A DNA stretch of 62,769 nt. Source: an uncultured Enterobacteriaceae bacterium (GTDB lineage: Bacteria; Myxococcota_A; UBA9042). Both the position numbers and the translations under genes were made by a program. Numbering within the stretch: position 1 is the stretch's first letter; every line of letters begins with the position of its first letter. The notes below the pieces were generated by a model. It worked only from the letters and a program-made list of their open reading frames with translations. It was not told the DNA's origin and ran no database searches. The DNA is taken from assembly GCA_964356325.1 (NCBI GenBank), contig CAYHHL010000009.1:1-62769 (forward strand), given 5' to 3'. Below, in pieces: positions 286 through 18,232 of this stretch.

Positions 286-1145
286 CACCCACCGCCGGGA
301 GGCTGAGGCATCGCCCCCTGGATCGCGCCTTCCACCTTCTCCATCTGCTTCATCTGCTGGATAGCCTGGGCTTCCTCCTCGCTCACCGCGGTCGTGAACG
401 TCTCGATGTCCAGCGCGCGCTTCTCGCCCTCCTCGTCCTTCCAGGTCAGGTGCAGCACGACCTTGCGCGTCCGGTCCGAGGCCCGTTTCAGGATGCGCGG
501 CAGCAGCTCCGCCACCATGATGCCCATCGACATCTGCAGCACCGAGATGTTGATGTCGCACAAGTTCAGCAGGTTCACACCTTGGTCGCCCGACATCAGG
601 ATGACGCCGAGCAGCGACATCATATCGCCGCCCTTGCTCAAGGCGCCGAGGTCCAGCCCCGCGTCCGTCGCGCCCTTGGCCGCGCCCGCCAGATCCTGCA
701 TCTTCTTGGCCGGATCGCCCGCCGCGCCGTCGCCCGAGTTCAGCTTGTCCAGCGCGCCGGTCTTGGCCAGGCCGTCTTGCGCGTCGGCCAGCACCTTTTG
801 CGCCTGGGTCGACATGTCGCCGATCGCCGCGTCGTCCAGGTTCAGGCCGATCAGGTCGTACTTGCACTTGAATTGCCGGGCGTAGGCCTTGGGCAACTCG
901 CAGTCCTTGCCGGTCACGTCGTTGGTCGGGAAGCCGTCCTTGCGGTACTTTTCCTCGACGTCGAGCATGGTTCCACGCAACAGCAGCGCCGCGACGGTCG
1001 ACCGGTAGATGCGTTTGGAGTACAGCGCCGACGACGACGTGCCCGCCGTGATGATGGTCAGCGCGAACGCCAGCACCGCCATCGCGATGAGCACTTCGAG
1101 CAGGGTAAAACCCCTTTGTTGCCGTCGGTTGCGCGCCACCAGCAC
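285..1145 (-). CDS. gspI: T2SS minor pseudopilin GspI-like, unusually long (286 aa)
   Basis: RG|FTLLEVLIAMAVLAF prepilin motif; GTG start with AAGGAG upstream; lies between gspH and gspJ. Confidence 0.75.
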   Translation of the reverse strand: MLVARNRRQQRGFTLLEVLIAMAVLAFALTIITAGTSSSALYSKRIYRSTVAALLLRGTMLDVEEKYRKDGFPTNDVTGKDCELPKAYARQFKCKYDLIGLNLDDAAIGDMSTQAQKVLADAQDGLAKTGALDKLNSGDGAAGDPAKKMQDLAGAAKGATDAGLDLGALSKGGDMMSLLGVILMSGDQGVNLLNLCDINISVLQMSMGIMVAELLPRILKRASDRTRKVVLHLTWKDEEGEKRALDIETFTTAVSEEEAQAIQQMKQMEKVEGAIQGAMPQPPGGG

Positions 1146-1148
1146 GAA

Positions 1149-1799
1149 TCAGCTCTCCTTGCCGAGCTTGTCGGCGTCGACCTTGTCCTTGTGTACTTTC
1201 GCGGTTCCTTCCAGCGCCTTGACCTCCACCGTCATCACGTCGTCGTCGTCGGCCTGCACGTAGATGAACGCGTTCTCGGTGGTACCATTGGGGAAGAAGT
1301 ACACGTAAGCCATGCCCTTTTCCGTTGGGTTCTGCTGGTGCGAGGTCATCACGGTGCCGAACTTCAGGCCCTTGTCCAGCGTGTACTTCGCTAGCAGGCG
1401 CGATTCGATCGGCGTGAACCCGGAAGTCTGGCTCTTGTCCGGCTCGGCCTGATTCTTGCCTTTTTTCAAAGGCTTCTTCTTGACCGCGTCGTCTTCCTCC
1501 TCGCCCTCGCCCGGCAGCAGGAAGGTCTCGCACGGATCCGAACTGGTCTGCGATTCCGCCCAGTAGGACTGCGTGTCCAGATCGATGACCAACCGGTGGT
1601 TCTTGCCCGAAAGCACTGACAGGTTGTAGAGATAGCGCACGGCGACCGCGAGCTTGCCCGACTCCGACTGCACCGAGGCGCCGCGGATGTTGCTGACTCC
1701 CGCCGCCACCGCGACCGTGACGATGCCGATGACCGCCACGACGACGACCAGCTCGATCAGGGTAAACCCGCGAGAACTACGTGGTTCAGTGCTTGTCAT
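1149..1799 (-). CDS. gspH: T2SS minor pseudopilin GspH-like
   Basis: RG|FTLIELVVVVAVIG motif; C-terminal VYFFPNGTTE typical of GspH/FimT; start revised to ATG 1799 (1808 also possible). Confidence 0.8.
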   Translation of the reverse strand: MTSTEPRSSRGFTLIELVVVVAVIGIVTVAVAAGVSNIRGASVQSESGKLAVAVRYLYNLSVLSGKNHRLVIDLDTQSYWAESQTSSDPCETFLLPGEGEEEDDAVKKKPLKKGKNQAEPDKSQTSGFTPIESRLLAKYTLDKGLKFGTVMTSHQQNPTEKGMAYVYFFPNGTTENAFIYVQADDDDVMTVEVKALEGTAKVHKDKVDADKLGKES

Positions 1800-2271
1800 T
1801 GCCGCCATAGCAGATGTCGTCGTCGCCGCCGTTCTTCTTGTCCGGACCGTTGGAGCACAGCGTGAACGCATCGCCCTGGGCGCTGTAGTTCAGGTCCTGC
1901 TTCCAGGGATCCTTGAGGTTGGCCTGCTTGAGCCGGGCGCGCTTGCCTTCAGTCAGGCTGGCCAGCGAGTCCGGGAACTCGCCCTGGCGCGCCTCGACCG
2001 CCTCGATCACGCCGCCGACCGTGGCGATTTGCGCCTTGGCCGCGTCGATCTTGGCATCGCCGAGCATGCCGAACACGCCGACCGCGAGCGCGCTGCCGAG
2101 CACGCCGATGATCACGATCACCACCATGATTTCAATCAAAGTCATGCCCAGCGAAGCGTGGGGCATGACTTTGATTGTAGTTGCCGCGCGGCGCCGCGCG
2201 ACTCCGTGATGCGCCTGGGTACAGGCTTCGAGTTGCTGCCAAAGATGCAGTTTCAAGACGTTCAGGTTCAT
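1786..2271 (-). CDS. gspG: T2SS major pseudopilin GspG
   Basis: G|MTLIEIMVVIVIIGVL, LKDPW and SNGPD motifs of GspG; AAGGAGG 9 nt upstream of ATG 2271. Confidence 0.85.
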   Translation of the reverse strand: MNLNVLKLHLWQQLEACTQAHHGVARRRAATTIKVMPHASLGMTLIEIMVVIVIIGVLGSALAVGVFGMLGDAKIDAAKAQIATVGGVIEAVEARQGEFPDSLASLTEGKRARLKQANLKDPWKQDLNYSAQGDAFTLCSNGPDKKNGGDDDICYGGNDKH

Positions 2272-2301
2272 CGGTAGCGCCCTCCTTCGGCGCGGAAACT
2301 C

Positions 2302-3561
2302 TCAGCCTCTCATGGACTTCGCAAGTTGCATCATCGGCAGCAGGATCGCCGCCACCAGGAAGCCGACCATCACGCCCATGCCGACGATCATGATCGGCTC
2401 CAGCAGCGAGGTCAGCGCATTCACCCGCGTATCCACCTGATTCTCATAGCTTTCACTCACGTTGCGCAGCATGTTCTCGAGTTCGCCCGAGCGCTCGCCG
2501 ATCGCCACCATGTGCACGACCATCGGCGGAAACTGCTGGCTGCGCTTCAACGGCCCGGCGATGCTGTCACCTTCCCGAATCGCCGCGCGGGCTTCGGCGA
2601 TCACCTTGGCGAGCACGCGATTGGCCACCACGTTCTCGACGATTTCCATCGCGGTCAGCAGCGGCACGCCCGAGGACAACAGCGTCGACAGGGTCCGAGA
2701 AAAGCGTGAGATCGCGATCTTGCGGATGAGGTCGCCCAGCACTGGCACCCGCAGCAGGAACGCGTCCCACGAGTCGGCGCCCTTGTCGGTGGCCAGCCAG
2801 CGCCGAAAGCCTACGGTTGCGCCGACCGCGAGCAGGATGCCCAACCACCAGAAGCTCGAGAACAGGCTCGAGATGAAGATCAAGGCCTTGGTGATCAACG
2901 GCATCTCGGTGCCAAGATCGGTGAACATCCCGGTAATCGTTGGCACCACGAAGATCATCATCGCCGAGACGATGAGGGTGGCGATGCACAACATGATGAC
3001 CGGATAGGTCATGGCGCCGATGATCTTGTTGCGCAGGCGCACTTGCGATTCGGTGAAGTCGGCCAACCGCAGCAGCACGACGTCCATGTTGCCCGAGCTC
3101 TCACCCGCGCGGACCATGTTGAAGTACGTGACGCCAAAGACTTTCGGGTGCGCGCCCAACGCCCGCCAGAACGGCGCGCCCTCGTTCACGTCGGTGCGCA
3201 CCTGGGCAAGGACGCGCTTGAGCTTGGGGTTTTCGATCTGCTCGACCGTGGCGCCCAGCGCATCGACCAACGGCACGCCGGCCTTGAGCAAGGTCGCCAT
3301 CTGCCTGGTCATTTCCGAGACGTCGTTGGGCGAGATGCGCGTGAGCAGTTCTTCGAGGTCGAAGTCGCGCGAGCCGGCCTTCTGCACCGCACCGGCGCGG
3401 ATCTTGGCCTTGCCGCCCTTGACCGAAGTCTCGTGGTACTCGGTGAGGAAAACCTTGTCGCGGCGCAACGCGGACTTGAGCGAACGCACGCTCTCGACAT
3501 CAAGGACTCCCTTGATGGTGCGGCCACTTGAATCCTTGCCTATGTATTCAAAGACCGGCAT
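2302..3561 (-). CDS. gspF: T2SS inner-membrane platform protein GspF
   Basis: Two T2SSF domains (RQMATLLKAGVPL, GESSGNMDVVL, MTYP, GERSGELENML, LLEP). Confidence 0.95.
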   Translation of the reverse strand: MPVFEYIGKDSSGRTIKGVLDVESVRSLKSALRRDKVFLTEYHETSVKGGKAKIRAGAVQKAGSRDFDLEELLTRISPNDVSEMTRQMATLLKAGVPLVDALGATVEQIENPKLKRVLAQVRTDVNEGAPFWRALGAHPKVFGVTYFNMVRAGESSGNMDVVLLRLADFTESQVRLRNKIIGAMTYPVIMLCIATLIVSAMMIFVVPTITGMFTDLGTEMPLITKALIFISSLFSSFWWLGILLAVGATVGFRRWLATDKGADSWDAFLLRVPVLGDLIRKIAISRFSRTLSTLLSSGVPLLTAMEIVENVVANRVLAKVIAEARAAIREGDSIAGPLKRSQQFPPMVVHMVAIGERSGELENMLRNVSESYENQVDTRVNALTSLLEPIMIVGMGVMVGFLVAAILLPMMQLAKSMRG

Positions 3562-3658
3562 GGAGGTTCCTGATGAGCACTGCTTCTAATTCTGGGCGTT
3601 CAATTCCAGTCGCTCGGCGACCCATTGTGATGCGTGATTGCGATGGCACTGCAGAGAC

Positions 3659-5467
3659 CTAATCTTCTTGGTCTTGATTGGCGATGCGCATCACCTCTTC
3701 CACGGTTGTAGAGCCGCGCAGCACCTTGTAGGCGCCGTCGTTCAGCAGCGTTTGCATGCCGCTCGCCACCGCCGCGCGCTTGATCGTCCCCGCGTCGTTC
3801 TTGGCCACGATCAGCCGCTTGATTTCCTCATTGGGAATGAGCAGTTCGTGTAGACCCATCCGACCTGCGTAGCCCGTCATGCCGCACTGCGGACAGCCCT
3901 TCGCCGAGTAGATGGTCGCCGTCGCCAGCCGCGGATCGGTGCGCGCGATGCCCAGTTGCTCCAGTTCCAGATCGGTCGGGATGTGCGGCTGCCGGCAGTC
4001 CCGGCACAGCACGCGACACAGCCGTTGCGCCAGGATGCCGATGATCGACGACGACAAAAGGAATGGTTCCACGCCCATGTCGACCATACGGGTATAGGTC
4101 GAGGCCGCGTCGTTGGTGTGCACCGTCGAAAGCACCAGGTGGCCGGTCAGCGCCGCTTGCACCGCGATTTCAGCGGTTTCCAGGTCGCGGATTTCACCCA
4201 CCAGCACCACGTCCGGATCCTGACGCAGCGTAGCGCGCAGACCGCGGGCAAAGGTGAAGTCGATCTTGGGGTTGACCTGCATCTGGCCGATGCCTTCCAA
4301 CTGGTATTCGACCGGATCCTCGATGGTCAAGATGTTGATATCCGGGTTGTTGATCGACATCAGCGCCGAGTACAGCGTGGTCGTCTTGCCTGAACCGGTC
4401 GGCCCCGTGCACAGCAAGATGCCGTTCGGACGGTGCACCAGCTGGTTGATCGCCTCCACGACGTCTTCGCGCATGCCCAGCGTCTTCAAATCCAGCGTAG
4501 TCGAGCCCTTGTCGAGCAGACGCATCACGATCCGCTCGCCGTGCGCAGTCGGGATCGTGCTCAAGCGCAAGTCGATGTCGCGGCCCGCCACCTTGATGCG
4601 GATGCGGCCGTCTTGGGGCAGGCGCTTCTCGGCGATGTTCAGGTTGCCCATGATCTTGACGCGGCTGGTGATGGAAGCCTGGAACTTCTTGGAGGTCCGC
4701 ACCACCTCGCGCAGCACGCCGTCCTTGCGGAAGCGCACCAGCACGTACTTCTCCATCGGCTCGATGTGCACGTCCGAGACGCGTTCCTTGGCCGCCTGGT
4801 TCAGCACCGAATTCACCAGCCGGATGATCGGCGCTTCGTCGTCCTCGTCGAGGATGTCCTTGGCCGCGTCCTCCAGTTCCATCGCGATGTCGGCGACGCC
4901 GGAGTCGGTTTTCTCCATGTCGTCGAGCACTTGATCGGCACGCGCGCGGCGGTCGAAAGCGAAGTTGATGGCGTGGTTCAGCACGTCGGGAGTCACCAAC
5001 ACCGGTTCGACCTGGACGCCGCCGAACAGCACGCGCAAGTCGTCCAGCGCCGAGGTCGCCATCGGATTGCTGGTCGCCACCGTCAACACGCCGTTCAGCT
5101 TGTGAATCGGCAGAAGTTCCGACTCCTTGGCCCAGCCCATCGCCAACGGCGCCACCAGCGACACGTCGATGTTCGCCTCGTCGATACTGTCCTGTACGGT
5201 CATGCCCAGCTGCGAACCGAGCGCCTGCATCAGCTGAAGTCGTGTGATCGCCAGGTGTTGGATGAGCAGCTCGCCGATCAGCCCGCCGCGCTCGCCCTGC
5301 ACCTTCAGCGCGCTCTCGACCGCCTCGACCGTGCACCAGCCGCGTCCGACCAGGATCTCACCCAGCGCGCGCGGATCGATCTGTGGCGCCACGGCCGGAC
5401 GCTGTGTCGGCGCCGGACTCTGCGGCGGCAGTGGAATCGACATCATCGTGGTGGCTTCGAGCGTCAC
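3659..5467 (-). CDS. gspE: T2SS ATPase GspE with N-terminal MshEN-like domain
   Basis: Walker A GPTGSGKT, TIEDPVEY, Walker B LVGEIRD, His box STVHTND, CRDC...CPQC zinc module; GTG start overlaps the gspD stop. Confidence 0.95.
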   Translation of the reverse strand: MTLEATTMMSIPLPPQSPAPTQRPAVAPQIDPRALGEILVGRGWCTVEAVESALKVQGERGGLIGELLIQHLAITRLQLMQALGSQLGMTVQDSIDEANIDVSLVAPLAMGWAKESELLPIHKLNGVLTVATSNPMATSALDDLRVLFGGVQVEPVLVTPDVLNHAINFAFDRRARADQVLDDMEKTDSGVADIAMELEDAAKDILDEDDEAPIIRLVNSVLNQAAKERVSDVHIEPMEKYVLVRFRKDGVLREVVRTSKKFQASITSRVKIMGNLNIAEKRLPQDGRIRIKVAGRDIDLRLSTIPTAHGERIVMRLLDKGSTTLDLKTLGMREDVVEAINQLVHRPNGILLCTGPTGSGKTTTLYSALMSINNPDINILTIEDPVEYQLEGIGQMQVNPKIDFTFARGLRATLRQDPDVVLVGEIRDLETAEIAVQAALTGHLVLSTVHTNDAASTYTRMVDMGVEPFLLSSSIIGILAQRLCRVLCRDCRQPHIPTDLELEQLGIARTDPRLATATIYSAKGCPQCGMTGYAGRMGLHELLIPNEEIKRLIVAKNDAGTIKRAAVASGMQTLLNDGAYKVLRGSTTVEEVMRIANQDQED

Positions 5468-8400
5468 GGCTTGGGCTCCGGCGTCTTCGGGGCGCTGTCT
5501 TCTTTCGCGGGCGCGCTGTCCGGGCCAGCCTTCTTGCCCTTGGCCTTGGGCGCAGTCTTGCCCTTGACTGGCACGGTCTTCGCCTTGGGCGCAGAGGTTG
5601 CCGCGGGCGCAGCGGATTCCCTGCCTGGCTTCTCGCCGTCCAAGCGATCGCTCGCGTCGTCGTCCTTGGCCTTGCCAGAAGCCTTGCCACCGCCTGGCTT
5701 TTCCGCTTCCGGCAGGTCGATCACTTCGGGCACGGTGCCGTCGTCGCTCTCGTCGTCCAGCCTGCCCTCGGCGTCCGGCTTGCCTTGGTTCTTCCTGTCC
5801 TGCGCATCCTTTTGTTTTTGCGCCTTGAACGGGTCGAAGTTCAGGTCGTGGCGCTCCGGCGGTCCGACCAGATCCACGTCCGCGTTGTCGAAGTACGCTT
5901 TTTCCTGAAGTTTGCGCTCCTCGGACGCCTTCTCGACCGTCTGGAACACCGCCTCGAGGAATCCGCGCTTCTTGCGGTAGTCGACCTTGCCCTCGTACTC
6001 CTTCTGCTTGGTCGCCAGCTCTTCGGCAAACTCGCGAATCTGCTGCATCTTGTTCTCGTGCATCCGCTCCAGATCGCTCGGGTCCTTGATGATGTGCGGC
6101 ACGATGATGAGCAGCAGGTTCTTCTTCTCGAGCAGCTTGGTGGTCTTGCGGAAGAACATGCCCAGCAGGGGCAGGTCGCCCAGGATCGGAATCTTGGAAA
6201 CGCCCGTGGTCTCGCGATCGGTAATCAAACCACCGATGACCACGGGCTGCTGATCGCGTACCACCACGGTGTTGGTGATCTTGCGCTTCGAAGTCGTCGG
6301 CCCCAGATCCGGGCTGATGCCTTCGACCTCGTCGAGTTGCTGGTCGATCTTGAGCTTGATGAAGTCCGACTCGTTGATCTGCGGCGTGATCTTGAGCGTC
6401 AGGTCGACCTCGAGGTGCTGCACCGTGCCGCCGAGCGCGCCGCCGAGCAGGCCGCCCAGCCCGCCGAGACCGCCCAACGACGACGCCGCGCCGCCCAAGC
6501 CGGAGAGGCCGCCGAGACCGCCCAAGGCACTGCCGCCCATGCTCTGGGAACGATAGGGGATCTTGCGTCCGACTGTGATCTCCGCGTCCTCGTTGTTGAG
6601 CGTGAGGATGTGCGGGGTGGACAACACGTTGACGTCGGAATTCTCCTGGATCGCCTGAATCAGGAAGCCGAACGCGGGGATGGACAGGGTGGCGCCGGCC
6701 GGGACAGCGCCTGTGTTGCCGGCGTCGACCTGCAGCAGGGGCCCCTGCAAGCCCGCCGCGAAGCCGCCCGCGTTGAGTTGCTGCAAGCTGACGCCGCCCA
6801 TGCCCAGACCGCCCAAGCCGATCAGGAAGGGCACATCCTTGTACTGGCCGATGTCGAACTTGACGCCCGTCGAGCCGGCGAGTTGGGTCTTGCGGTTCTT
6901 GGAGGTCGAGATCTCCATGATCACGGCTTCGACGTAGACTTGCTTGCGCCGCCGATCGAGCTCGGCGATGACCTTCTGCAAAGACAGGTAATCCTTGAGC
7001 GAAGACTCGATCACCAAGGCGTTGGTGGCCTTGTGCGCGGTGATCTTCACGTCGCCTTCGAACAGCGTGGCCGTCCCGCCGCCCTTGGCCCCACCGGCCT
7101 TGGCGCCGCCGGTCTTGCCCCTCGCCGCGCCGGCCTTGGCCCCGCCGCCGCCGCCCGCGAGCGAGGACAAGGTGCTGGCCACGTCCTCGGCGTCGGCGTT
7201 CTCCAAATGGTGGATGTGGATGGCGCCCTCGCCCGGAATCGGCACGTCGAGCTTGCGGATCAGCGCGTCGATCTTGAGGTAGTTGCTCCTCGTCGCGATG
7301 AGGATGAGCTGGTTGGAGCGGTCGTCAGCAATCGCCTTGGAAAGCGTGACCTTGTTGCCCGCCGGACCGCCGGCGGCTCCGGGAGGCGAACCGGGCGTGG
7401 TCGCTCCACCCTTGCCGCCCGCGCCTTCGAACACCGCGGTGATCTTCTCGACCAGTTCCGAGGCGTCCATGTGCTGCACCGGGCGGATCCAGATCTTCTC
7501 GGCGCCCAGCGGCAAGTCGACGTCGTTGAGCAACTTCATGATGCTGTGGATGTTGGTGCCGGTGTCGGTGACGATGAGCGAGTTGTTCGGCGGATACACG
7601 AAGATATCGCCGGCCTTGCTCTTGAACTTGGTGACCAGGGGCTCGACCTCCTTGGCGTCGAGGTTCTTCAACCGGATGATGCGCGTGACCATGTTGTCAT
7701 CGTTGGGCACCGCGCTCGTGGGCCCGACGACCGTGGCGCCCGAGGTGCGCGCGTCCGCCGTGTCGACGATGTGGTAGAATGCGCCCTTCTTGGTGACGGA
7801 CATGCCGTTGACCATCAGGCTCGACAGGAAGGCGCGGTAGGCCTCGTACACGCTGACCGGCTGCGGCGAAATGATGGTGATCTTGCCGCCGCGCTTCTGG
7901 GTCGCGAGGATGAAGTTGCGCGTGGTCCAACACGAAACGAGCTTCATCACCGCTTCGATCGGCGCGTCCTGGAAGTCCAGTGTCACCTTGGCGTTGGCCG
8001 GCAGCTTCTTGCACTTGATATCGCTGATGTTGTTCTTGATCGCGACGACGTCATCGCCCATCTTCTTGAGGTCGTCGTCACCGATCGCGCCCTTGGCCGC
8101 GCCTGCCTGATCGTCCTTGCCAGCGCGACCGCCACCGGCAGGCGTGGGCACCACCGGATCGCTCGGGCCCCCGTCCACGCCCAGCTTCTTGGACGTTTGC
8201 GCGGGATCGTAGTCCGGATCGAGGGACTGCTTGCCGCCGCCGCGCTTGAACACGCCGCTGCCGGTCGCCTTCAAGTCCTTGGTTTTGCCCTTCTTGTTCA
8301 GCGTGCCGGCGCCGGTCTTGACGGGAATGGTCTTGTCGCCCGGCGGGGCAGCGGCTTGCTGGGCATGCGCCATGCCTGGCAGCAGAAGCGCGCAGATCAG

Positions 8401-8499
8401 CACCAAAACGCCAGTCTTGTCGCAGGCACGCCGCAGGGACGGCGGCGGCTGGCTTGGCTTGCCCGGCTTGTCAGCCAGCGTGGGTCGGAACGGACGCAA
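5464..8499 (-). CDS. gspD: T2SS secretin GspD
   Basis: N0 (VTLDFQDAPI), repeated N domains, KQVYVEAVIMEI, NVLSTPHILTLNNEDAEITVG, LKITPQIN, KIPILGDLPLLGMFFR. Likely start is TTG 8499 after GGAGAG (ORF track starts at 8553). Confidence 0.95.
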   Translation of the reverse strand: MRPFRPTLADKPGKPSQPPPSLRRACDKTGVLVLICALLLPGMAHAQQAAAPPGDKTIPVKTGAGTLNKKGKTKDLKATGSGVFKRGGGKQSLDPDYDPAQTSKKLGVDGGPSDPVVPTPAGGGRAGKDDQAGAAKGAIGDDDLKKMGDDVVAIKNNISDIKCKKLPANAKVTLDFQDAPIEAVMKLVSCWTTRNFILATQKRGGKITIISPQPVSVYEAYRAFLSSLMVNGMSVTKKGAFYHIVDTADARTSGATVVGPTSAVPNDDNMVTRIIRLKNLDAKEVEPLVTKFKSKAGDIFVYPPNNSLIVTDTGTNIHSIMKLLNDVDLPLGAEKIWIRPVQHMDASELVEKITAVFEGAGGKGGATTPGSPPGAAGGPAGNKVTLSKAIADDRSNQLILIATRSNYLKIDALIRKLDVPIPGEGAIHIHHLENADAEDVASTLSSLAGGGGGAKAGAARGKTGGAKAGGAKGGGTATLFEGDVKITAHKATNALVIESSLKDYLSLQKVIAELDRRRKQVYVEAVIMEISTSKNRKTQLAGSTGVKFDIGQYKDVPFLIGLGGLGMGGVSLQQLNAGGFAAGLQGPLLQVDAGNTGAVPAGATLSIPAFGFLIQAIQENSDVNVLSTPHILTLNNEDAEITVGRKIPYRSQSMGGSALGGLGGLSGLGGAASSLGGLGGLGGLLGGALGGTVQHLEVDLTLKITPQINESDFIKLKIDQQLDEVEGISPDLGPTTSKRKITNTVVVRDQQPVVIGGLITDRETTGVSKIPILGDLPLLGMFFRKTTKLLEKKNLLLIIVPHIIKDPSDLERMHENKMQQIREFAEELATKQKEYEGKVDYRKKRGFLEAVFQTVEKASEERKLQEKAYFDNADVDLVGPPERHDLNFDPFKAQKQKDAQDRKNQGKPDAEGRLDDESDDGTVPEVIDLPEAEKPGGGKASGKAKDDDASDRLDGEKPGRESAAPAATSAPKAKTVPVKGKTAPKAKGKKAGPDSAPAKEDSAPKTPEPKP

Positions 8500-8572
8500 A
8501 GGGCACTCTCCGATGCGGACGTTGGTCCGCTGGTGGTGGCACGAAAAGCCCATCCCACCCAGATGGTTCGAT

Positions 8573-9598
8573 CTACTGGACCGTATACCGCAGCGTTTTC
8601 GCGACGCCGCCGCGCTCGATCAGCACGGTCAGGCGCGCCTTGTTCTTCAAGGCTTCGTACAGGGACAAGGCTTTGTTCGGACTGTCCAGGGGCTCACCGT
8701 TCACCGCGAGCAGGATGTCCCCGTTCGTGAAGCCGATTTCGCCAAACAGGCTGTCGCCCTGCATGCCGATCATGCGCACACCGGCGTACTTGCCGTTCTT
8801 GTAGTTCGGCACGATGCGGACCTGCTGGCCCAGCGCCGCCAGATCCTTCAGCTTGTCATTGATATGCTTGCGATCCAGCTGGTAGCTCGTGTCGGACAGC
8901 TTCTTCACGCCCTCGACCTGCGGCTCCGTGCTCTTCCTGGTATCGACAGCGGAACTGCGCTTGGGCTCAGGCGATCGGCCGGGCATCGGCTGGCCAGGCT
9001 GCCCGTCCATGCCTGGCTGCACCGGCACCCCCATGGCCGCGGAATCCTTGCCGAACAGCGGCGCGATCGTCAGCTTGTCGGCTTCCCTCAACACCACGTA
9101 ATTGCGCCGGATAGCCAGGATGGTCGCCTTGCCGTCGAGGATTTCCGTGCCGACGCCGACGACCTTCTGGTCCTTCTTGTCCATCTCCATGCTGGCCTGG
9201 GAAAACTCGGCGGGCATCACGACCATCGTGCCCAGCAGCTTGACCGGCAGCGTCGTCGGTTCGTAGGTCGGCTCCGGGGGCGCCAGTTCGGCTCCGCTGT
9301 CGACGACGTTTTCATCTGTATTCTCGAGAGGCTCTTCGACCTTGGGCGTTTCGATCAGGAAGATGCTGCGACCGGCGATGACTGCGCCTGCCTGCTCGTT
9401 CAAGCGACCGTTCAACAGCCGCAGGCCAATCGCGGTGTCCCCTGCCGTCGCGGCGATATTGGGCTTTTCGTCACCGCGACCCATCACGGCCAGGCGCATG
9501 CCGATGAAGGCATTGATCGACCCGGCCGAAAGCCACGCGATGACCGCGAGGCCGACCAGGGTGATGACCCAGAAATGACGCTTGAGCAGAACTTCCAT
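8573..9598 (-). CDS. gspC: T2SS protein GspC with C-terminal PDZ domain
   Basis: N-terminal TM helix, HR domain (KLLGTMV, IRRNYVVL), RIVPNYKNGKYAGVR and PDZ (GFTNGDILLAVNG); first gene of the operon. Confidence 0.9.
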   Translation of the reverse strand: MEVLLKRHFWVITLVGLAVIAWLSAGSINAFIGMRLAVMGRGDEKPNIAATAGDTAIGLRLLNGRLNEQAGAVIAGRSIFLIETPKVEEPLENTDENVVDSGAELAPPEPTYEPTTLPVKLLGTMVVMPAEFSQASMEMDKKDQKVVGVGTEILDGKATILAIRRNYVVLREADKLTIAPLFGKDSAAMGVPVQPGMDGQPGQPMPGRSPEPKRSSAVDTRKSTEPQVEGVKKLSDTSYQLDRKHINDKLKDLAALGQQVRIVPNYKNGKYAGVRMIGMQGDSLFGEIGFTNGDILLAVNGEPLDSPNKALSLYEALKNKARLTVLIERGGVAKTLRYTVQ

Positions 9599-9678
9599 GC
9601 TCGCCTGTTCTCGCACGTCAGCTAGGTTGCCGACTCGCCCTTGGTGGCCCTGGCTACACCAGCACTAGTCCGATTAGA

Positions 9679-9694
9679 AGCAAGGGTCGTGCCA
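9679..9694 (-). promoter_or_regulatory. sigma-54 promoter of the T2SS operon
   Basis: Minus strand reads TGGCACG-ACCC-TTGCT, an exact match to the -24/-12 consensus with GG-N10-GC spacing, about 80 nt upstream of gspC. Confidence 0.85.
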
Positions 9695-9796
9695 TCTGGC
9701 CCGCCAAGGAAACGCAGGGAATCGCGTCGGTTGCCCGTCGGCACGGCCTGTGGGTCGCGACGCCTTGGCATCTCCATGCCCCGCGCGGTCTGAACC

Positions 9797-9813
9797 GTGT
9801 GCCAAATTGGCAA
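9797..9813. promoter_or_regulatory. Palindromic candidate bEBP enhancer site (copy 1)
   Basis: GTGTGCCAAATTGGCAA, core TGCCAA-A-TTGGCA at 9800-9812; core starts 106 bp from the -24 T at 9694; near-identical copy at 13851-13867. Confidence 0.65.
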
Positions 9814-9958
9814 CAGCGCGATCCGCAAGCCCTGCCATCGCGGGAGAAGACGGGGCCGAGGCCGGCTTTCTGGCGCGGGCGACCTGGCCCCGCTATGCTG
9901 AGGCGCGCATCCGGGCTCCAGTGCACGGCCATGCCCACTGCGAAAGAGGCCGCTCCCC

Positions 9959-11035
9959 ATGACAAGTCGATGCTGTATCTGGGTTTGCTGCCTCTGGTTT
10001 GGCGTCTTGGGCTTCGGTTGCTCCGACGGCGAGACAGCCGCCAAGGCCAAGGCCGACGCCGCGATCGCCGACACGCTCGACACCGAGGACTCGGTGACGC
10101 CCCCTGACGCCGGCAGCGAGATCGTCGACAGCGCGACACCCGGGACCGATGCCAGCGCACCCGTCGACGAAGACGCCGGTCTGGACGCGACCTTGCGCAC
10201 CACGCCTGACGGTTGCGTCGCGAACTGCGCGCAAAGCGACGGCACGCCCAAGGTCTGCGGCGGCAACGGCTGCGGCTCGGTGTGCGGCTTCTGCAAGACC
10301 GGGTACTTGTGCAAGCCCGACGGCAGCGAGTGCATCGAACTGTGCAAGCCGAAATGCGACGGCAAGAAGTGCGGCGACAACGGCTGCGGCGGCAACTGCG
10401 GCACGTGCCAGGATAAGTTCCACTGCGGCATCGACTTCCTGTGCCACGAGGACGCCTGCGTCGGCTCGTGCGCGAGCAAGCAGTGCGGCGACGACGGCTG
10501 CGGCATCAGTTGCGGCGACTGCCCGCAAGGCGACCTGTGCGAGAGCACGGGACAGTGCAAACCTGGACCGTGCAAGGGTATTCCCAACGAGGGCAGTTGC
10601 GCGGGCGACATCCTCAAGACCTGTGTGGGCAGCGGCGCCTCGGCCACCAAGCTCAACACCGATTGCGGCGCGACCGCGGGCAAGACCTGCGGTTGGGATC
10701 CCCTCAAGAATGTGAATGCTTGCATCGAGAAGCCGCCGTGTGTGCCGAACTGCAAGACCCTCGACGGCAAGACCACCAAGGTTTGCGGCGACAACGGCTG
10801 CGGCAAACCGTGCGGCACCTGCACAAGCGGCTGGACCTGCAAGATCACCACTTGCGAACCGACGGTAGGCGCGGAATGCGGCTCGAGCTGGCCACCCGCG
10901 GGCAAGTGCTCGGGCAATACGCTGCAATACTGTTCGACCGGCTCGCCGCCCAAGATCGTCGAGTTGGACTGCAGCGAAGTGCCCGGTTGGAAATGCCAGT
11001 ACACCGGCAGCAAGTACGACTGCGTCTCGCCCTGA
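9959..11035 (+). CDS. Cys-rich repeat lipoprotein
   Basis: Lipobox-like GFGC, acidic D/A/T linker, four CxxxC..CGxxGCGxxCGxC repeats and two GxCxG(D/N)xLxxC modules; AAGAGG before the ATG. Confidence 0.8.
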   Translation: MTSRCCIWVCCLWFGVLGFGCSDGETAAKAKADAAIADTLDTEDSVTPPDAGSEIVDSATPGTDASAPVDEDAGLDATLRTTPDGCVANCAQSDGTPKVCGGNGCGSVCGFCKTGYLCKPDGSECIELCKPKCDGKKCGDNGCGGNCGTCQDKFHCGIDFLCHEDACVGSCASKQCGDDGCGISCGDCPQGDLCESTGQCKPGPCKGIPNEGSCAGDILKTCVGSGASATKLNTDCGATAGKTCGWDPLKNVNACIEKPPCVPNCKTLDGKTTKVCGDNGCGKPCGTCTSGWTCKITTCEPTVGAECGSSWPPAGKCSGNTLQYCSTGSPPKIVELDCSEVPGWKCQYTGSKYDCVSP

Positions 11036-11040
11036 CCTGG

Positions 11041-11877
11041 TTACATGCCTCGGGCTGCTTGCATGTTCACCAGCAAGTCCTTGTAGTTGACGCCTTGCCT
11101 GGCCCCTGCCGGACCGTAGAACACCTCGTCCAGCGTCAAACCGTGCGCGGGCGCCGTCTGCCCGGCGCGGCTGCGATCGCCGCCCAGCAGGATCTGCGGC
11201 ACTGTGAGTGCGTTGAGCCGGCCGCGACCTATGTCGACCAACGTGCCGGTGATGATGCGCACCATGTTGAGCAGGAAGGCGTTTCCATCCACGGTGACCG
11301 TCACGACACCCGGTTCCGGCTCGGCCACCTCCACGCTGCGCAGGTGACGGATCGTCGAGGCCGCGGTACAGCCGACCGCTCGAAACGCCGCGAAATCATG
11401 GATGCCTGCGAAATACACCGCGGCTGCTTGCATGGCCTCGACGTCCAAGGGCCCGCGCACTTGCCAGGCATTTCGCCGGCGCAGGGGCTGGCGCGCTTCC
11501 CCGACCGTCAACCCGTATACGTAGCGCTTGCCCACCGCGTCGGCGCGCACGTCGAACTCCGCGGGCACGTCATCCGCCGCCTGGATCGCCATGTCTTCGG
11601 GTAGATGTGCGTTCAGCCCGAGCATCAGGCCGCGCGCCGGCACCGTCTTGTCGGTTCGCACCAGCACCGGCATGCGGCGGGCGTGCACTCCGGCGTCGGT
11701 GCGGCTGGAACTGCGCGCAATCACAGGCTCGCCGAGCATCCGCAGCCAGGCCGCCTCGAGCGTGCCCGCCACCGTGCGCGTGCCTTCAGCCTGGCGTTGG
11801 AAGCCCGAGAAGTCGGTGCCGTCGAACTGCACCCACAGCAGCACGTGACGCGAGCGCTCGCGGTCCGCGGGCCTCAC
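11041..11877 (-). CDS. truA: tRNA pseudouridine(38-40) synthase TruA
   Basis: QFDGTDFSGFQRQ, SRTDAGVHA (catalytic Asp), FLLNMVRIITG, TAPAHGL. True start is GTG 11877, overlapping the upstream stop (GTGA); the 549-aa ORF-track call is over-extended. Confidence 0.95.
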   Translation of the reverse strand: MRPADRERSRHVLLWVQFDGTDFSGFQRQAEGTRTVAGTLEAAWLRMLGEPVIARSSSRTDAGVHARRMPVLVRTDKTVPARGLMLGLNAHLPEDMAIQAADDVPAEFDVRADAVGKRYVYGLTVGEARQPLRRRNAWQVRGPLDVEAMQAAAVYFAGIHDFAAFRAVGCTAASTIRHLRSVEVAEPEPGVVTVTVDGNAFLLNMVRIITGTLVDIGRGRLNALTVPQILLGGDRSRAGQTAPAHGLTLDEVFYGPAGARQGVNYKDLLVNMQAARGM

Positions 11878-13649
11878 AGATCGAACGCAATCCCGAAGGT
11901 CAGCATGTCGTCCGACAGGTCGATCGACTTGGGGTTGCCGAAATCCGTGAGCGAGAGCTTCTTGTATTCCGCGAACAAGTAGCTGTGGTTGACGCCCATT
12001 TCGATGTCGAAGCTGCGGGCGGACTGCGGCTCGAACACGTCCAACAGCAAGCGCATGCCCAACGTCCCGTAGAAACCGCCAGTGCCGCCGCGGCCGACGT
12101 ATTCCTTGCCGCCGATCGTAGTGCGCGACAAGTTGCCCAGGCCGTTCTCCATCCACCACAGCGCGTAGACGATACCGCCGCGAACATAGGGAATCAGCGG
12201 GAAGTCGTAGCGTTCGGCCAGCACGTCGAAGCGGTACACGGCGTCGAACGAGATCGGCACGATCGACAGCGTGGTGGTGTCGCCGGTCGTGGCACCGCCC
12301 TTCGAGAGGCTGTTGCCCTCCTTGGTCCAGCGCGCGGCGCCCATGCCCATCGAGAAATCCCCGAAACCGTTCCAGATTCGCCAATCTATCGTTGCGCCGA
12401 CTTCCCAGGCGCTGTCCTTCATGATCTTGGCGTAGGGCGTGAAGCCATTGGTGCCGACGAATTCGCGATCGATTTGCGGGGTGTAGCTGCCAAAGCGGAT
12501 GTCCAGGCTCGAGGTCAGGGGCGAGACAGCCTCGCTGCGGGCGGGCAGGGCGCAAAGGCCGAGCGCAACCAGGACAATCGGCAAGGCGCGCACCGACTTG
12601 CGCCGCCGGACCACTAGCCACGCCAGCCCCGCGAGCATCAGCAGGGCGATGAGCCCCGAGGGCGAGCGACCGACCGGAGCCGCACTGCACGCGGCGTAGT
12701 CGCCTTCTTCGGCCCCGCCCTTGTCCTTGTAGTACTCCCAGAGGTCTCGGACCTCGATGGGGGTGGCGGTCTTGATTGCCGATGGGGCGCTCTCGTTGTC
12801 GTGCGCATCGACGGCGACGACGGTGACGTTGTAGGGGATGTCATTGGTCAAGTTCGGGATCTTGTAGGAGGTGCCCGGCAACTTGTCCGACCTCGTTGAT
12901 TCAGGCAGGGCATTGAGATCCAGCGGCCCGGCCGACCAATACACCCGCGCGAAGTTGTCTTTCGCGTCGACGTAGCTCCAAGTGACGTTGAGGTTGTTGC
13001 CGCCTGGAGTCAGGCCGGTGATGGTCGGCGTGCCCGGGCCGGCCAGGTCGAGCTTGATGTCGAGCGTGATGCCGCTGGTCGTGGCGGCGGCGCCGGCCGT
13101 TGCGACCTGACCGCCGATGAGAAAGGCGATTTTGGCAGTGGGTTCGGTGCCGGCCGTGCACAGCGTGTCGCCGAGCAGGTCGCGCAGGTCGACTTCCACC
13201 GTCTCGCCCAGCGCGTTGGCCTTGAACTTCTCGTCGATGAGCAAGACCTTGCACTTGCCCGACGGGTCGGCGGTCGAGGACATCTCGGTGAGGCTGCAAC
13301 TCGCGCCCGGCGCGGCGACCTTGATGCCGTACGTGTTCGACGCTACGCCCGCCAGCGGCCGATCGAGCCAACTCCACTTGATCCGCACCTTGGGCAGCGC
13401 ATTCTTGCGGATCAGGTTGCAGTCCGCGATGTTGATGACGTGCTCGACGTTGATGTCGACGGCGCTGGCGGGAGACTTGAACAAGCGCTCATTGGGCGTG
13501 TAGGTCAGGCCCGAGATTGCGGCGATGCTGTCGATCTGAATGGTGATGGCCCAGGCCGACGCGCTAGTCAGAAGGAGCATCGTCACCGATACTGCCAGAG
13601 TCAGCACTTTCTTTGTCTGGCCAAGGGCCTGCCGCGCACTCCACACCAT
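11874..13649 (-). CDS. Secreted FN3-like protein with internal MYXO-CTERM-like segment fused in frame to an outer-membrane beta-barrel (MXAN_2561/MXAN_2562-like)
   Basis: Signal peptide (SAWA|I); FN3-like domain (PGTPTITGL...LNVTWS...YNVTVVAVD); CSAAPVGRSPSG + TM helix + RRRK; a second signal-like stretch (ARSEA|V); alternating-hydrophobic barrel ending GIAFDL. GGAGG before ATG 13649. Family names from memory of myxobacterial families. Confidence 0.8.
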   Translation of the reverse strand: MVWSARQALGQTKKVLTLAVSVTMLLLTSASAWAITIQIDSIAAISGLTYTPNERLFKSPASAVDINVEHVINIADCNLIRKNALPKVRIKWSWLDRPLAGVASNTYGIKVAAPGASCSLTEMSSTADPSGKCKVLLIDEKFKANALGETVEVDLRDLLGDTLCTAGTEPTAKIAFLIGGQVATAGAAATTSGITLDIKLDLAGPGTPTITGLTPGGNNLNVTWSYVDAKDNFARVYWSAGPLDLNALPESTRSDKLPGTSYKIPNLTNDIPYNVTVVAVDAHDNESAPSAIKTATPIEVRDLWEYYKDKGGAEEGDYAACSAAPVGRSPSGLIALLMLAGLAWLVVRRRKSVRALPIVLVALGLCALPARSEAVSPLTSSLDIRFGSYTPQIDREFVGTNGFTPYAKIMKDSAWEVGATIDWRIWNGFGDFSMGMGAARWTKEGNSLSKGGATTGDTTTLSIVPISFDAVYRFDVLAERYDFPLIPYVRGGIVYALWWMENGLGNLSRTTIGGKEYVGRGGTGGFYGTLGMRLLLDVFEPQSARSFDIEMGVNHSYLFAEYKKLSLTDFGNPKSIDLSDDMLTFGIAFDL

Positions 13650-13732
13650 CGCCTGCCTCCGCGCCCATTCTCGCGACTGGCCGGACCGACTGGACCGTGC
13701 CACCGTTGCGAACTCTCACGCTGCTTCCATGA

Positions 13733-13748
13733 TGCACGCCCCGTGCCA
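13733..13748 (-). promoter_or_regulatory. sigma-54 promoter of the fusion gene-truA unit
   Basis: Minus strand reads TGGCACG-GGGC-GTGCA: exact -24 box, GG-N10-GC spacing, one mismatch in -12; about 85 nt upstream of ATG 13649. Confidence 0.7.
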
Positions 13749-13850
13749 AAGCCGCTCGCCCGGAACATCTGACGAAACAGGCGGATGCGCCCCGATCGCA
13801 GCTACAGCGCCTGCCGTCCCGTCACGGTCTCGAGTCTACCGCGCCCCCCG

Positions 13851-13867
13851 GTGTGCCAAACTGGCAA
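13851..13867. promoter_or_regulatory. Palindromic candidate bEBP enhancer site (copy 2)
   Basis: GTGTGCCAAACTGGCAA, 16/17 identical to 9797-9813; core starts at 13854, 106 bp from the -24 T at 13748. Confidence 0.65.
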
Positions 13868-13888
13868 AGGCGCGCGAACTCACCGCCG

Positions 13889-14953
13889 TCAGTTGGCGAT
13901 CGTGCCCGCGCGCGGCGGTCGCACCAATGCGCCGTGTACCAGGCCGCGCTTCACCGCCAACTGCGCGATCTGCACCGCATTGGTTGCCGCGCCCTTGCGC
14001 AGGTTGTCCGCCACCACCCATAGCGCCAGCCCATGCGGCACCGACGGGTCGTTGCGAATCCGCCCCACGAACACGGCGTCCTTCTCGGCGACGTCGATCG
14101 GCATCGGGTAGCGCTTCTGACTGGGGTCGTCCACCACCACGATACCTGGCGCTTTTTCGAGGATGTTGCGCGCGTCGTCGGCCGTGAGCTCGTAGGTGAA
14201 CTCGACTGCGATCGATTCGCTATGGCCGGCGAACACCGGCACGCGCACCGCCGTCGGACACACCTTTATCTCGGGATCGTTGAGGATCTTGCGCGTCTCG
14301 TGGATGAGCTTGGTCTCCTCCTCGGTGTAGCCGTCGGCCTCGAACGCGCCGATGTGCGGCACCACGTTGAAGGCGATCTGCGCGTGGTGGATCTTGACGT
14401 CGAACGGCTTCTGGTTGAACAGCGCGATCGCCTGCGCCGAAAGTTCGTCCATGCCCTGCTTGCCGGCGCCACTGACCGATTGGTAGGTCGAGACCACGAT
14501 GCGCTTGATCCGCGCGGCGTCGTGCAGGGGCTTGAGCGCCACGACCATCTGGATGGTCGAGCAGTTCGGGTTCGACACGATGCCGTGGTGATCGTCCAGC
14601 GCCTCGGCATTGACCTCGGGCACCAGCAGCGGCACGTCCGGATCCATCCGGAACGCGCTGGAGTTGTCGATGCAGAAGCAGCCTCGACGGGCGGCCTCGG
14701 GCAGCAACAGCTTGGAGATCGCCGAACCCGCTGAAGCCAGGACGATGTCCACGCCGTCGAACGCCTCGGGCTCGGCCGCGCGCACGATCAGCTTGCGCTT
14801 GCCGAAATCGACCTCCTCACCGACTGAGCGCGGGGAAGCCAGGGCAATGACTTCGGAAAACGGGAAGCGCATCTCGTCGAGCACGGCCAACATCTCGCGG
14901 CCGACGGCACCGGTGGCTCCCAGGACGGCGACCTTGTAACGGGGCAGATTCAC
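13889..14953 (-). CDS. asd: Aspartate-semialdehyde dehydrogenase
   Basis: VLGATGAVG, DNSSAFRM, NPNCST (catalytic Cys), QSVSGAG, DNLRKGAATNAVQIA; GTG 14953 after AAGGAG. Confidence 0.95.
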   Translation of the reverse strand: MNLPRYKVAVLGATGAVGREMLAVLDEMRFPFSEVIALASPRSVGEEVDFGKRKLIVRAAEPEAFDGVDIVLASAGSAISKLLLPEAARRGCFCIDNSSAFRMDPDVPLLVPEVNAEALDDHHGIVSNPNCSTIQMVVALKPLHDAARIKRIVVSTYQSVSGAGKQGMDELSAQAIALFNQKPFDVKIHHAQIAFNVVPHIGAFEADGYTEEETKLIHETRKILNDPEIKVCPTAVRVPVFAGHSESIAVEFTYELTADDARNILEKAPGIVVVDDPSQKRYPMPIDVAEKDAVFVGRIRNDPSVPHGLALWVVADNLRKGAATNAVQIAQLAVKRGLVHGALVRPPRAGTIAN

Positions 14954-15124: not shown

Positions 15125-16099
15125 CTACGAAACCGGCGCGGGTCCCGGGGGCGGCGGCGGAATGCCGGGTCCCGGCTCCGCTTGCCCCAGTCCCGGCGGC
15201 GGCGGCGGCACGCGCTGGGGCCGTGCGAGCAACGGTCGGTCGTGCATGCGCACCACCAGCGTGGTGATATTGTCGTGGCCGCCGCGCTCCTTGGCGACTT
15301 CGGTCAGCATGTGACACGCCGCTTCGGCCGAGGGCGCATCGTGCAGCACGCGGCCGATTTCCTCGTCGCGCACCAGATCGGTCAGCCCGTCGGTACACAG
15401 CAGGATCTGGTCGCCGGCGCGGATGCTCGCCACGTAGATGTCCACCACCACGCTCTCTTGCAAGCCCAGCGCGCGCACGATCACGTTCTTGTACGGGAAG
15501 TTCTCGATCTCGTCAGGCTGCAGCAGGTTCATCTTGATGTATTCGTTCAGCAGCGAGTGGTCCTCGGTCAACTGCTCGAGCTTGTTCTTGCGCATCCGGT
15601 AGACGCGGCTGTCGCCGACGTTGGCGACATACACGCGCGAACCGACGAATGCCGTCGCCACCACGGTCGTGCCCATGTCGCGCAACTGCTCGTGCTGCTG
15701 GGCCAGGCGGAACACCGAGATGTTGGCGCTTTCCACGGCCTTGCGCAGACGCAGCGCGTGGTGGCTCACGTCGCGCGCACCTGGCTCATCGGCGCGAATC
15801 GCTCGACGGTGGGCGGACTTGACGCGACGCGTGAGGTCGCGCGAATGGTAGAAGGCCTTGACCGCTTCGATGGTGAACGCCGAAGCGACCTCGCCGCACG
15901 CGTGGCCACCCATGCCGTCCGCGACGACGTACAGGGCCTGATCTTCCATGATCAGCAAGGCGTCTTCGTTGCCTTCGCGCACGAGCCCGACGTCAGTGAG
16001 CCCGAAGACTTCGCGGAACAGGCCCCTGCGGACGGCCGTGCTCGAACCGGAGACTACGGTCTTGGCGGAGGTCTTGGATTCGACGGTCGTTTGGCCCAT
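15125..16099 (-). CDS. PP2C-family Ser/Thr protein phosphatase with Pro-rich tail
   Basis: TDVGLVREGNED, VADGMGG, NVGDSR, LCTDGL, GGHDNIT motifs; start revised to ATG 16099. Confidence 0.92.
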   Translation of the reverse strand: MGQTTVESKTSAKTVVSGSSTAVRRGLFREVFGLTDVGLVREGNEDALLIMEDQALYVVADGMGGHACGEVASAFTIEAVKAFYHSRDLTRRVKSAHRRAIRADEPGARDVSHHALRLRKAVESANISVFRLAQQHEQLRDMGTTVVATAFVGSRVYVANVGDSRVYRMRKNKLEQLTEDHSLLNEYIKMNLLQPDEIENFPYKNVIVRALGLQESVVVDIYVASIRAGDQILLCTDGLTDLVRDEEIGRVLHDAPSAEAACHMLTEVAKERGGHDNITTLVVRMHDRPLLARPQRVPPPPPGLGQAEPGPGIPPPPPGPAPVS

Positions 16100-16194
16100 G
16101 CGCGGAACATCCCCTTGGTTCCGTTCCGTCGCACACAACTGCGCGTCATACAACGGTTGTCTTGCCCCGCACCGGGCGGATTCGCAGCCAGGGG

Positions 16195-17944: not shown

Positions 17945-18232
17945 TTACTTGGAGTTGCCCTTGTCGACGCGGTTCTTCAGCTCGAGGCCGACCTTGAAGA
18001 ACGGCATGCGCTTCGGGCCCACGGCGACCGGATTGCCGGTCTTGGGGTTGCGGCCGGTGTACGCCGGGTACTTCCGCACGGTGAAGTTGCCGAAGTTACG
18101 GATTTCGATCCGCTCACCGCGCTTCATCGCATCGACCATCAGGTCGAAGATGGAGTTGACGACGATGCTGGCCTTGTCCTTGGTCAGGGTGGCCTTCTGG
18201 GCGACGTTCTCGATCAGGTCAGACTTAGTCAT
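17945..18232 (-). CDS. ihfB: Integration host factor beta / HU-family DNA-binding protein
   Basis: MTKSDLI, ERIEIRNFGNF, GRNPKTG, PFFKVGLELKNRVD. Confidence 0.85.
   Translation of the reverse strand: MTKSDLIENVAQKATLTKDKASIVVNSIFDLMVDAMKRGERIEIRNFGNFTVRKYPAYTGRNPKTGNPVAVGPKRMPFFKVGLELKNRVDKGNSK

Follow-up and report, generated by a model that had tools for sequence, protein, structure and literature searches.

Does the uncultured freshwater myxobacterium represented by contig CAYHHL010000009.1 switch on its type II secretion system (T2SS) together with a surface protein that the system probably exports? The stretch of DNA analysed here (62.8 kb, 64% G+C; hereafter the window) carries on its minus strand the T2SS operon that begins with gspC and, further upstream, a gene that fuses an SgmI-like surface protein to an outer-membrane beta-barrel. 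An initial annotation of this DNA proposed that a single bacterial enhancer-binding protein co-activates the operon and the fusion gene through a palindromic site upstream of a sigma-54 promoter in front of each. Our analysis supports this proposal through the conservation of the palindrome–promoter composites, the presence of a second, phased site and the adjacency of palindromes to a regulator gene in sister lineages. Judging from sequence comparisons, we estimate the probability that a shared enhancer co-regulates the T2SS operon and the fusion gene at roughly 80%.

Sigma-54 promoters and their upstream palindromes

The two minus-strand sigma-54 promoters that had been predicted are both present. 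The promoter of the gsp operon (9679–9694, minus strand; TGGCACGACCCTTGCT, TGGCACG-ACCC-TTGCT), with its GG at 9693–9692 and GC at 9681–9680, lies ~80 nt upstream of gspC and has a predicted transcription start site (TSS) near 9668–9669, which would leave a 5′ untranslated region (UTR) of ~70 nt. The promoter of the fusion gene (13733–13748, minus strand; TGGCACGGGGCGTGCA, TGGCACG-GGGC-GTGCA; GC at 13735–13734) lies ~85 nt upstream of its gene, with a predicted TSS near 13722 and a 5′ UTR of ~73 nt. Compared with the consensus TGGCACG-N4-TTGCW with GG-N10-GC, the gspC box matches fully and the fusion box departs once, at −15. When the window was scored with position weight matrices derived exclusively from relatives, the gspC and fusion promoters reached 27.3 and 24.3 bits, respectively, and the next best position 9.5 bits. 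The gspC box is kept as TGGCA(C/T)G-N4-TTGCT in every relative checked, and the fusion box is kept in relatives as TGGCAC-N5-(G/A)TGCA. Neither a sigma-70-like promoter nor an intrinsic terminator was detected across positions 9500–14100.

Upstream of each promoter is a palindrome of the form TGCCA-W3-TGGCA, which we refer to as site 1. At gspC it occupies 9800–9812 (plus strand TGCCAAATTGGCA; TGCCAATTTGGCA in promoter orientation), with an extended form, TTGCCAATTTGGCAC, at 9798–9813; at the fusion gene it occupies 13854–13866 (plus strand TGCCAAACTGGCA; TGCCAGTTTGGCA in promoter orientation) and begins 23 bp past the asd stop codon. Both palindromes are centred near −138 and, as the initial annotation had noticed, 106 bp separate the promoter-proximal A from the T of TGGCAC in both copies. 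Exact matches to TGCCANNNTGGCA occur in the window only at these two sites; TGCCAAAYTGGCA with one mismatch allowed was matched three times against an expectation of 0.17, and none of 100 shuffles reached three. The weight-matrix scores of the two sites are 27.0 and 26.8 bits, with the next best position in the window at 5.6 bits. By our own estimate, the number of such composites expected by chance in the window is ~1e-5 for a single copy. Moreover, in a gapless alignment, the ~105 bp that separate palindrome from promoter at gspC and at the fusion gene are identical only at background level; the two spacers are thus unrelated, and the pair is neither a duplicated segment nor a mobile repeat.

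Each promoter has a second site, which in the window starts 42 bp closer to the promoter than site 1 in both cases. At gspC, this weaker site 2 lies at 9758–9770 (TGCCAAGGCGTCG in promoter orientation), with its centre near −96; the fusion gene's counterpart, at 13812–13824 (TGACGGGACGGCA in promoter orientation), belongs to a family with the consensus TGCCG-N3-CGGCA. The anatomy of the sites was examined in an alignment anchored on site 1 that comprised 20 non-redundant promoters of gspC and 22 of the fusion gene. In the alignment, site 1 extends to (T/G)TGCCA-W3-TGGCAC, and site 2 starts 41–43 bp nearer the promoter, reading TGCCA(G/A)NNCG(G/T)CG at gspC and TGCCG-N3-CGGCA at the fusion gene. 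For the gspC promoters (n = 20), it is the offset of 41–43 that best matches TGCCR-N3-YGGCA, and 16 of the 22 fusion promoters have at most two mismatches at the same offset. Measured from the predicted TSSs, the site centres near −138 and −96 are four helical turns apart. Such a phased two-site layout upstream of a sigma-54 promoter is the classical layout of NtrC-type enhancers.

The TGGCAC half of the enhancer has the letters and the orientation of the −24 box (9798–9813, 13852–13867 and all related sites); in other words, an enhancer site is a palindrome of −24-like boxes. The enhancer was also considered as a second, tandem sigma-54 promoter, which was rejected since the window copies lack a GC at −12. 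The hint in the initial annotation that integration host factor (IHF) bends the intervening DNA found no support: the IHF consensus WATCAANNNNTTR, with up to two mismatches, has no match in either spacer (both 30% A+T). The window does encode an IHF-beta-like protein; its gene, previously annotated as ihfB (17945–18232, minus strand), scores 103.5 bits against NF001222, below the cutoff of 115.

Loci of relatives were fetched by protein identity or similarity (GspC homology) only, the motif playing no part in their selection, and their GspC homologues span 86% to 41% identity. The composite is present upstream of gspC in 11 of 11 relatives with upstream sequence (L001, L003, L004, L006–L011, L013 and L138) and upstream of the fusion gene in all five loci that contain this gene (L001, L004, L008, L009 and L010). 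The gspC palindromes have no more than two mismatches, the maximum being found in L010, and the spacer DNA has diverged. The conserved composite represents a phylogenetic footprint, obtained from loci chosen without the motif. The spacing, which had been described as exactly 106 bp, holds for both window copies but is not strictly invariant, ranging from 104 to 108 bp in relatives. Gene order is likewise kept: IHF-like, asnS, PP2C, asd, fusion, truA, (Cys-rich, on the opposite strand) and gspC–N. In L006 and L007, the gspC composite is retained without the fusion and Cys-rich neighbours. Furthermore, a pattern scan of GTDB genomes, described below, recovered both promoter classes in more than 12 further Myxococcota metagenome-assembled genomes (MAGs), often ~4 kb apart on one contig. 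To our knowledge, little is known about the control of T2SS expression outside a few pathogens, and nothing on the regulation of MYXO-CTERM surface proteins was found in the literature searched. The composite provides a concrete conserved cis-element, defined by sequence, two-site geometry and spacing, that links the T2SS machine to a likely cargo or outer-membrane partner and spans a large uncultured clade of freshwater myxobacteria.

Target genes, proposed mechanism and candidate activator

Why would a secretion machine and the fusion gene share a switch? The fusion gene (11874–13649, minus strand; 591 codons, ATG at 13649) combines an SgmI-like (MXAN_2561-family) part with an MXAN_2562-family beta-barrel. 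Its product consists of an FN3 surface part containing an internal MYXO-CTERM signal, then a second signal peptide and finally the outer-membrane beta-barrel. In NCBIfam searches it scores 190.6 bits against MXAN_2562_fam (cutoff 100) and 22.7 against MYXO-CTERM (cutoff 20); the score against MXAN_2561_fam, 93.7 bits, is below the cutoff of 150. SgmI (MXAN_2561) is a MYXO-CTERM-tagged surface protein of the FN3 type, and MXAN_2562 is co-transcribed with it (10.64898/2026.08.28.747804). According to the same study, which cites Sah et al. 2020 on this point, MYXO-CTERM proteins require the T2SS to reach the surface (10.64898/2026.08.28.747804). It therefore makes sense to co-activate the machine and its cargo or partner, and the earlier idea that the fusion protein is a substrate of the T2SS fits this published dependence. 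Both gspC and the fusion gene are transcribed in lake metatranscriptomes, the fusion gene in three of them; coverage there is sparse, and the contigs carry no strand information.

The mechanism that we propose is the textbook enhancer/sigma-54 scheme. Within an upstream activating sequence of two sites, the palindromes would be those of high affinity, and dimers of a single NtrC-family response regulator with REC, AAA+ and Fis-type HTH domains would bind to them. Upon activation by its presumptive signal, the regulator would assemble into oligomers, contact the sigma-54 holoenzyme at the −24/−12 box ~106 bp downstream through a DNA loop and spend ATP on opening the promoter, making transcription dependent on sigma-54. 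In this way, gspC–N and the adhesin/barrel fusion, along with truA, would be switched on together; it is the presence of the same enhancer and promoter before both operons that points to joint switching-on.

A close architectural parallel comes from enteric bacteria, in which the NtrC enhancer of glnAp2 has two dyad dimer sites on the same face of the helix, at about −140 and −108, ahead of a −24/−12 promoter. The myxobacterial promoters similarly have two dyad sites, at about −138 and −96, with a CCA-N3-TGG centre in a 5-N3-5 core, and the regulator found in sister lineages (see below) shares the REC, AAA+ and Fis-HTH domains with NtrC. However, TGCACCA of the enteric half-site is replaced by TGCCA, the two sites are separated by 42 bp instead of 32, and a secretion machine and a surface protein take the place of nitrogen assimilation genes as targets.

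Clues to the identity of the activator come from sister lineages, which were reached by a GspC profile search at ~30% identity. In L139 (GCA_020633435.1) and L142/L143, a gene with Response_reg, Sigma54_activat and HTH_8 domains (454–470 amino acids, aa) is located directly upstream of gspCDEFG. The regulators of L139 and L142 are 62% identical and have the HTH helix AAQLLG(I/V)ATRTIYRKLE in common. In L139, the 305-bp spacer between the regulator gene and gspC contains CGACAATTTGGCA and TGACAATTTGGCA, 41 bp apart. L142 has TGACGAGCTGGCA and TGACAATTTGGCA, also 41 bp apart, the second of which overlaps the TGA stop codon of the regulator gene, and a GG-N10-GC box 65 bp beyond this palindrome. 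In addition, a perfect GTGCCAAATTGGCAC together with TGGACCGGCGCTTGCA, a GG-N10-GC box, precedes the L142 regulator gene itself, and because of this perfect palindrome and sigma-54-like box the arrangement suggests possible autoregulation. The L142 elements (8283–8297, 8350–8365 and 9813–9825) place palindromes on both sides of the gspC-adjacent activator gene. This adjacency ties the palindrome to one candidate regulator family.

The likeliest activator would accordingly be a candidate orthologue of the orphan regulator encoded upstream of gspC in the sister lineages (the P0173 family), its gene presumably having a different genomic location in the clade of the window. We give slightly better than even odds to an activator from this P0173/Nla4-position family. 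Searches against PDB and NCBIfam returned only generic NtrC/AtoC/ZraR-like matches for the regulator, all below cutoffs: P0173 scored 417.9 against the NtrC equivalog (cutoff 558.6), the sister-lineage regulators scored 415.7 and 453.5 against PrsR (TIGR02915, cutoff 502.6), and none of the AtoC, NtrC, ZraR and PrsR equivalogs was reached by them.

The second half of the family designation refers to Myxococcus xanthus, in which nla4 is MXAN_2516 (PMC11980068) and gspD is MXAN_2514 (PMC3222651), so that, by locus tags, the order nla4–gspC–gspD mirrors that in L139 and L142. Nla4 is NtrC-like, and the resemblance in position, two locus tags from gspD as in the regulator–gspC–gspD arrangement of the sister lineages, is one of locus tags only (PMC11980068, PMC3222651). 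Unlike the M. xanthus locus, the clade of the window has no regulator next to gspC. Nla4 has been described through pleiotropic growth, ppGpp (guanosine tetraphosphate) and development phenotypes (PMC7910581, PMC11980068), and the literature searched gave neither a binding site for it nor a connection with the T2SS. No named Myxococcus protein was among the hits when the barrel domain or a GspC profile served as query. Our analysis leads to the prediction that Nla4 may be the T2SS activator of M. xanthus.

Two further systems deserve comparison. The closest conceptual precedent is the PrsR/PEP-CTERM site (Haft et al. 2006, PMC1569441), in which an NtrC-type motif and a sigma-54 box lie upstream of genes for proteins with a C-terminal sorting signal, and which was also found purely by comparative genomics. 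In contrast to that system, the one described here involves MYXO-CTERM and the T2SS rather than PEP-CTERM and exosortase, and the machine itself carries the enhancer; no PrsK or PrsT partners were seen here. The PilR–pilA pair offers a second parallel, in which an NtrC-family response regulator and sigma-54 likewise drive a representative of the type IV filament superfamily. PilR forms a pair with PilS within pil clusters and recognises other sites, whereas here a whole T2SS operon plus a cargo gene would be targeted and the sister-lineage regulator is an orphan.

The composite in other phyla and competing explanations

How widespread is the composite? GTDB genomes were scanned for TGCCANNNTGGCAC-N(100-108)-TGGCAC-N6-TGC, for which we estimate a chance expectation of ~10–15, and at least 119 loci were found. 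Among the 126 matches listed, to which the counts and descriptions in this paragraph refer, the downstream gene is groEL/groES in 31, dnaK in 29, the fusion gene in 18, gspC in 14, an MTHFR-like gene in three and a sigma-70-family gene in two, the remaining 29 being unclassified. Matches at gspC and the fusion gene are found on Myxococcota contigs, those at dnaK in Planctomycetota, Phycisphaerae and Kiritimatiellae, with a gap of mostly exactly 100, and those at groEL/groES in Planctomycetota and Poribacteria. Central triplets of the classified matches are A/T-rich; the 29 unclassified ones have random triplets and flat spacing, as for chance. Four loci labelled as Enterobacteriaceae or Klebsiella pneumoniae MAGs (L026, L043, L074 and L077) have G+C-rich enhancer/promoter regions of the gspC or fusion type, closely matching those of Myxococcota and look mis-binned or mislabelled.

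At the chaperone-type loci (L017, L023, L046, L047, L070, L102, L020, L025, L066 and ~50 others listed), TGCCA-AAA-TGGCAC is situated 100–107 bp upstream of near-consensus sigma-54 boxes before dnaK, groEL and groES, and Poribacteria groES promoters (e.g. L116) have three palindromic sites. This implies a putative enhancer-dependent chaperone regulon, undescribed so far, in Planctomycetota, Phycisphaerae, Kiritimatiellae and Poribacteria, and the motif before sigma-54-type chaperone promoters points to an uncharacterised heat-shock activator in Planctomycetota and Poribacteria. In Desulfobacterales (L055 2399–4181, L057 and L060), a REC-AAA+-HTH_8 gene is divergent from a 289-aa MTHFR-like gene, the sigma-54 promoter of which has ATGCCAAATTGGCAC 107 bp upstream, forming a separate small regulon. 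An in-silico sigma-54 survey of 2025 predicts an enrichment of promoters at COGs of the T2SS in Myxococcia and at those of DnaK, GroEL and GroES in Planctomycetota (PMC12316311). Both of these patterns, as reported there, recur in our analysis, and the searched passages and supplements of that survey contain no enhancer motif, spacing, activator or SgmI/MXAN_2562 link. Overall, neither the motif string nor sigma-54 control of the T2SS or of planctomycete chaperones led to any description of the enhancer in the literature searched.

By its distribution, the palindrome is a widespread NtrC-family site type. A bolder interpretation is that TGCCA-W3-TGGCA ~100–107 bp upstream of the promoter represents one ancient enhancer/activator pair, run across phyla by orthologous NtrC-type regulators; we consider this doubtful, any common descent of the cross-phylum regulators being conjectural at an identity of only 36%. 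If true, the pair would define a sigma-54-dependent folding and export regulon, comprising chaperones in Planctomycetota, Phycisphaerae, Kiritimatiellae and Poribacteria, and the T2SS with its MYXO-CTERM cargo in the myxobacterial clade. A different juxtaposition of chaperone and T2SS genes is seen in L141 (7253–10001, from a 6.25-Mb genome), where dnaK-hsp20-lon is divergent from gspCDEFG across an 838-bp spacer; curious as it is beside the cross-phylum motif, it may be a coincidence. L141 itself, with neither palindrome nor sigma-54 box, was dropped as an informative locus, as were P0089 and P0159, which are stand-alone GspC-like genes.

Several observations weigh against co-regulation of the T2SS operon and the fusion gene by a single activator of the kind found in sister lineages. 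A search of the window for activator signatures revealed no AAA+ activator gene, and the 20 kb around the cluster of a relative likewise contain none, gspC–N being followed downstream by metabolic genes. In the sister lineages, enhancer–promoter distances are 65 and 124 bp, and the −12 element of L139 is GG, not GC. L136, from a more distant myxobacterial lineage in which the sgmI-like and barrel genes are unfused, lacks the composite. One metatranscriptome contig (13624–13811) crosses the fusion promoter and the predicted TSS, which indicates either read-through from asd into the fusion gene or DNA in the RNA library. Finally, the regulators found beside the palindrome in Desulfobacterales and a planctomycete share only 36% identity, and the motif alone therefore cannot identify its regulator.

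The last point bears directly on the best-surviving alternative, namely, that the enhancer is real but its activator is another NtrC-family protein with the same half-site, such as the regulator at the Planctomycetota/Poribacteria chaperones. This is a possibility to be taken seriously, if a minority one: the low identity of the adjacent regulators, the recurrence in other phyla of the same composite before dnaK, groEL and groES and the lack of an activator gene next to gspC in the clade of the window are all compatible with it. However, in the closest lineages outside the clade, palindromes bracket a regulator gene located directly before gspC, and none of the matches listed is a motif-bearing chaperone promoter on a Myxococcota contig.

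Alternatively, two paralogous activators with the same site preference might serve one promoter each, in which case the operons would not be co-regulated. The weak site 2 does differ systematically between the promoter classes, TGCCA(G/A)NNCG(G/T)CG versus TGCCG-N3-CGGCA, and so do the −12 boxes, TTGCT versus GTGCA. Yet site 1 is indistinguishable between the classes, the geometry of 106 and 42 bp is identical, and a single regulator is the simpler reading, which makes a pair of paralogues improbable.

Less probable still is a conventional repressor or activator operator unrelated to sigma-54, for instance one controlling the Cys-rich gene or marking the end of asd. Such a role would suit the positions of the palindromes, since the gspC site is also 147 bp from the divergent gene at 9959, on its upstream side, and the fusion site directly follows the asd stop, at 23 bp. 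It does not suit the distance of 104–108 bp to the −24 box, held across deep divergence regardless of neighbours (L006, L007), nor the pairing of the motif with sigma-54 boxes again in other phyla; as for a terminator, the palindrome, with its short arms and A/T-rich centre, is unsuited to form the hairpin, and no terminator was detected. A chance match or a functionless duplicated or mobile repeat, for which nothing speaks except that the motifs are short, is already refuted by conservation in dozens of species and is further contradicted by the shuffle statistics and the unrelated spacers, leaving it a negligible probability. Collectively, these comparisons favour co-activation of the T2SS operon and the fusion gene through a shared NtrC-type enhancer.

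Genes around the two promoters

The gspC gene (8573–9598, minus strand) is the first gene of the gspCDEFG... operon and encodes a protein of 341 aa that matches NCBIfam GspC_delta with 220 bits (cutoff 150); its start at ATG 9598 is backed by the length of all homologues, ~341 aa. The remainder of the operon (1–8553, minus strand) includes gspD (5464–8553), gspE (3659–5467) and gspF (2302–3561), matching Pfam Secretin, T2SSE and T2SSF, respectively. Pseudopilin genes after gspF run off the left end of the window, and the complete gspC..N order is visible in relative L137.

Downstream of the fusion gene is truA (11041–11877, minus strand; TIGR00071, 151.8 bits). The two genes are probably co-transcribed, because the GTG start of truA overlaps the fusion stop codon (GTGA); the same overlap is present in L001. 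The SgmI-like/barrel fusion (11874–13649 in the window) is retained throughout the clade at 593–675 aa, and more distant lineages (L136 8976–10741; P0096 contig) have two genes with a 4-bp overlap in place of the fusion. The order asd–sgmI-like–barrel–truA holds even in lineages with unfused genes.

Divergent from gspC is a conserved neighbour (9959–11035, plus strand) encoding a Cys-rich secreted protein of 358 aa with CGxxGCGxxCGxC-type repeats, for which no sigma-54 box of its own and no Pfam or NCBIfam match were found. The protein could be a T2SS substrate, and its gene neighbours gspC down to 41% GspC identity (L138). On the other side of the fusion gene, the conserved syntenic block upstream of asd includes a gene for an Stp1-type PP2C Ser/Thr phosphatase (15125–16153, minus strand).

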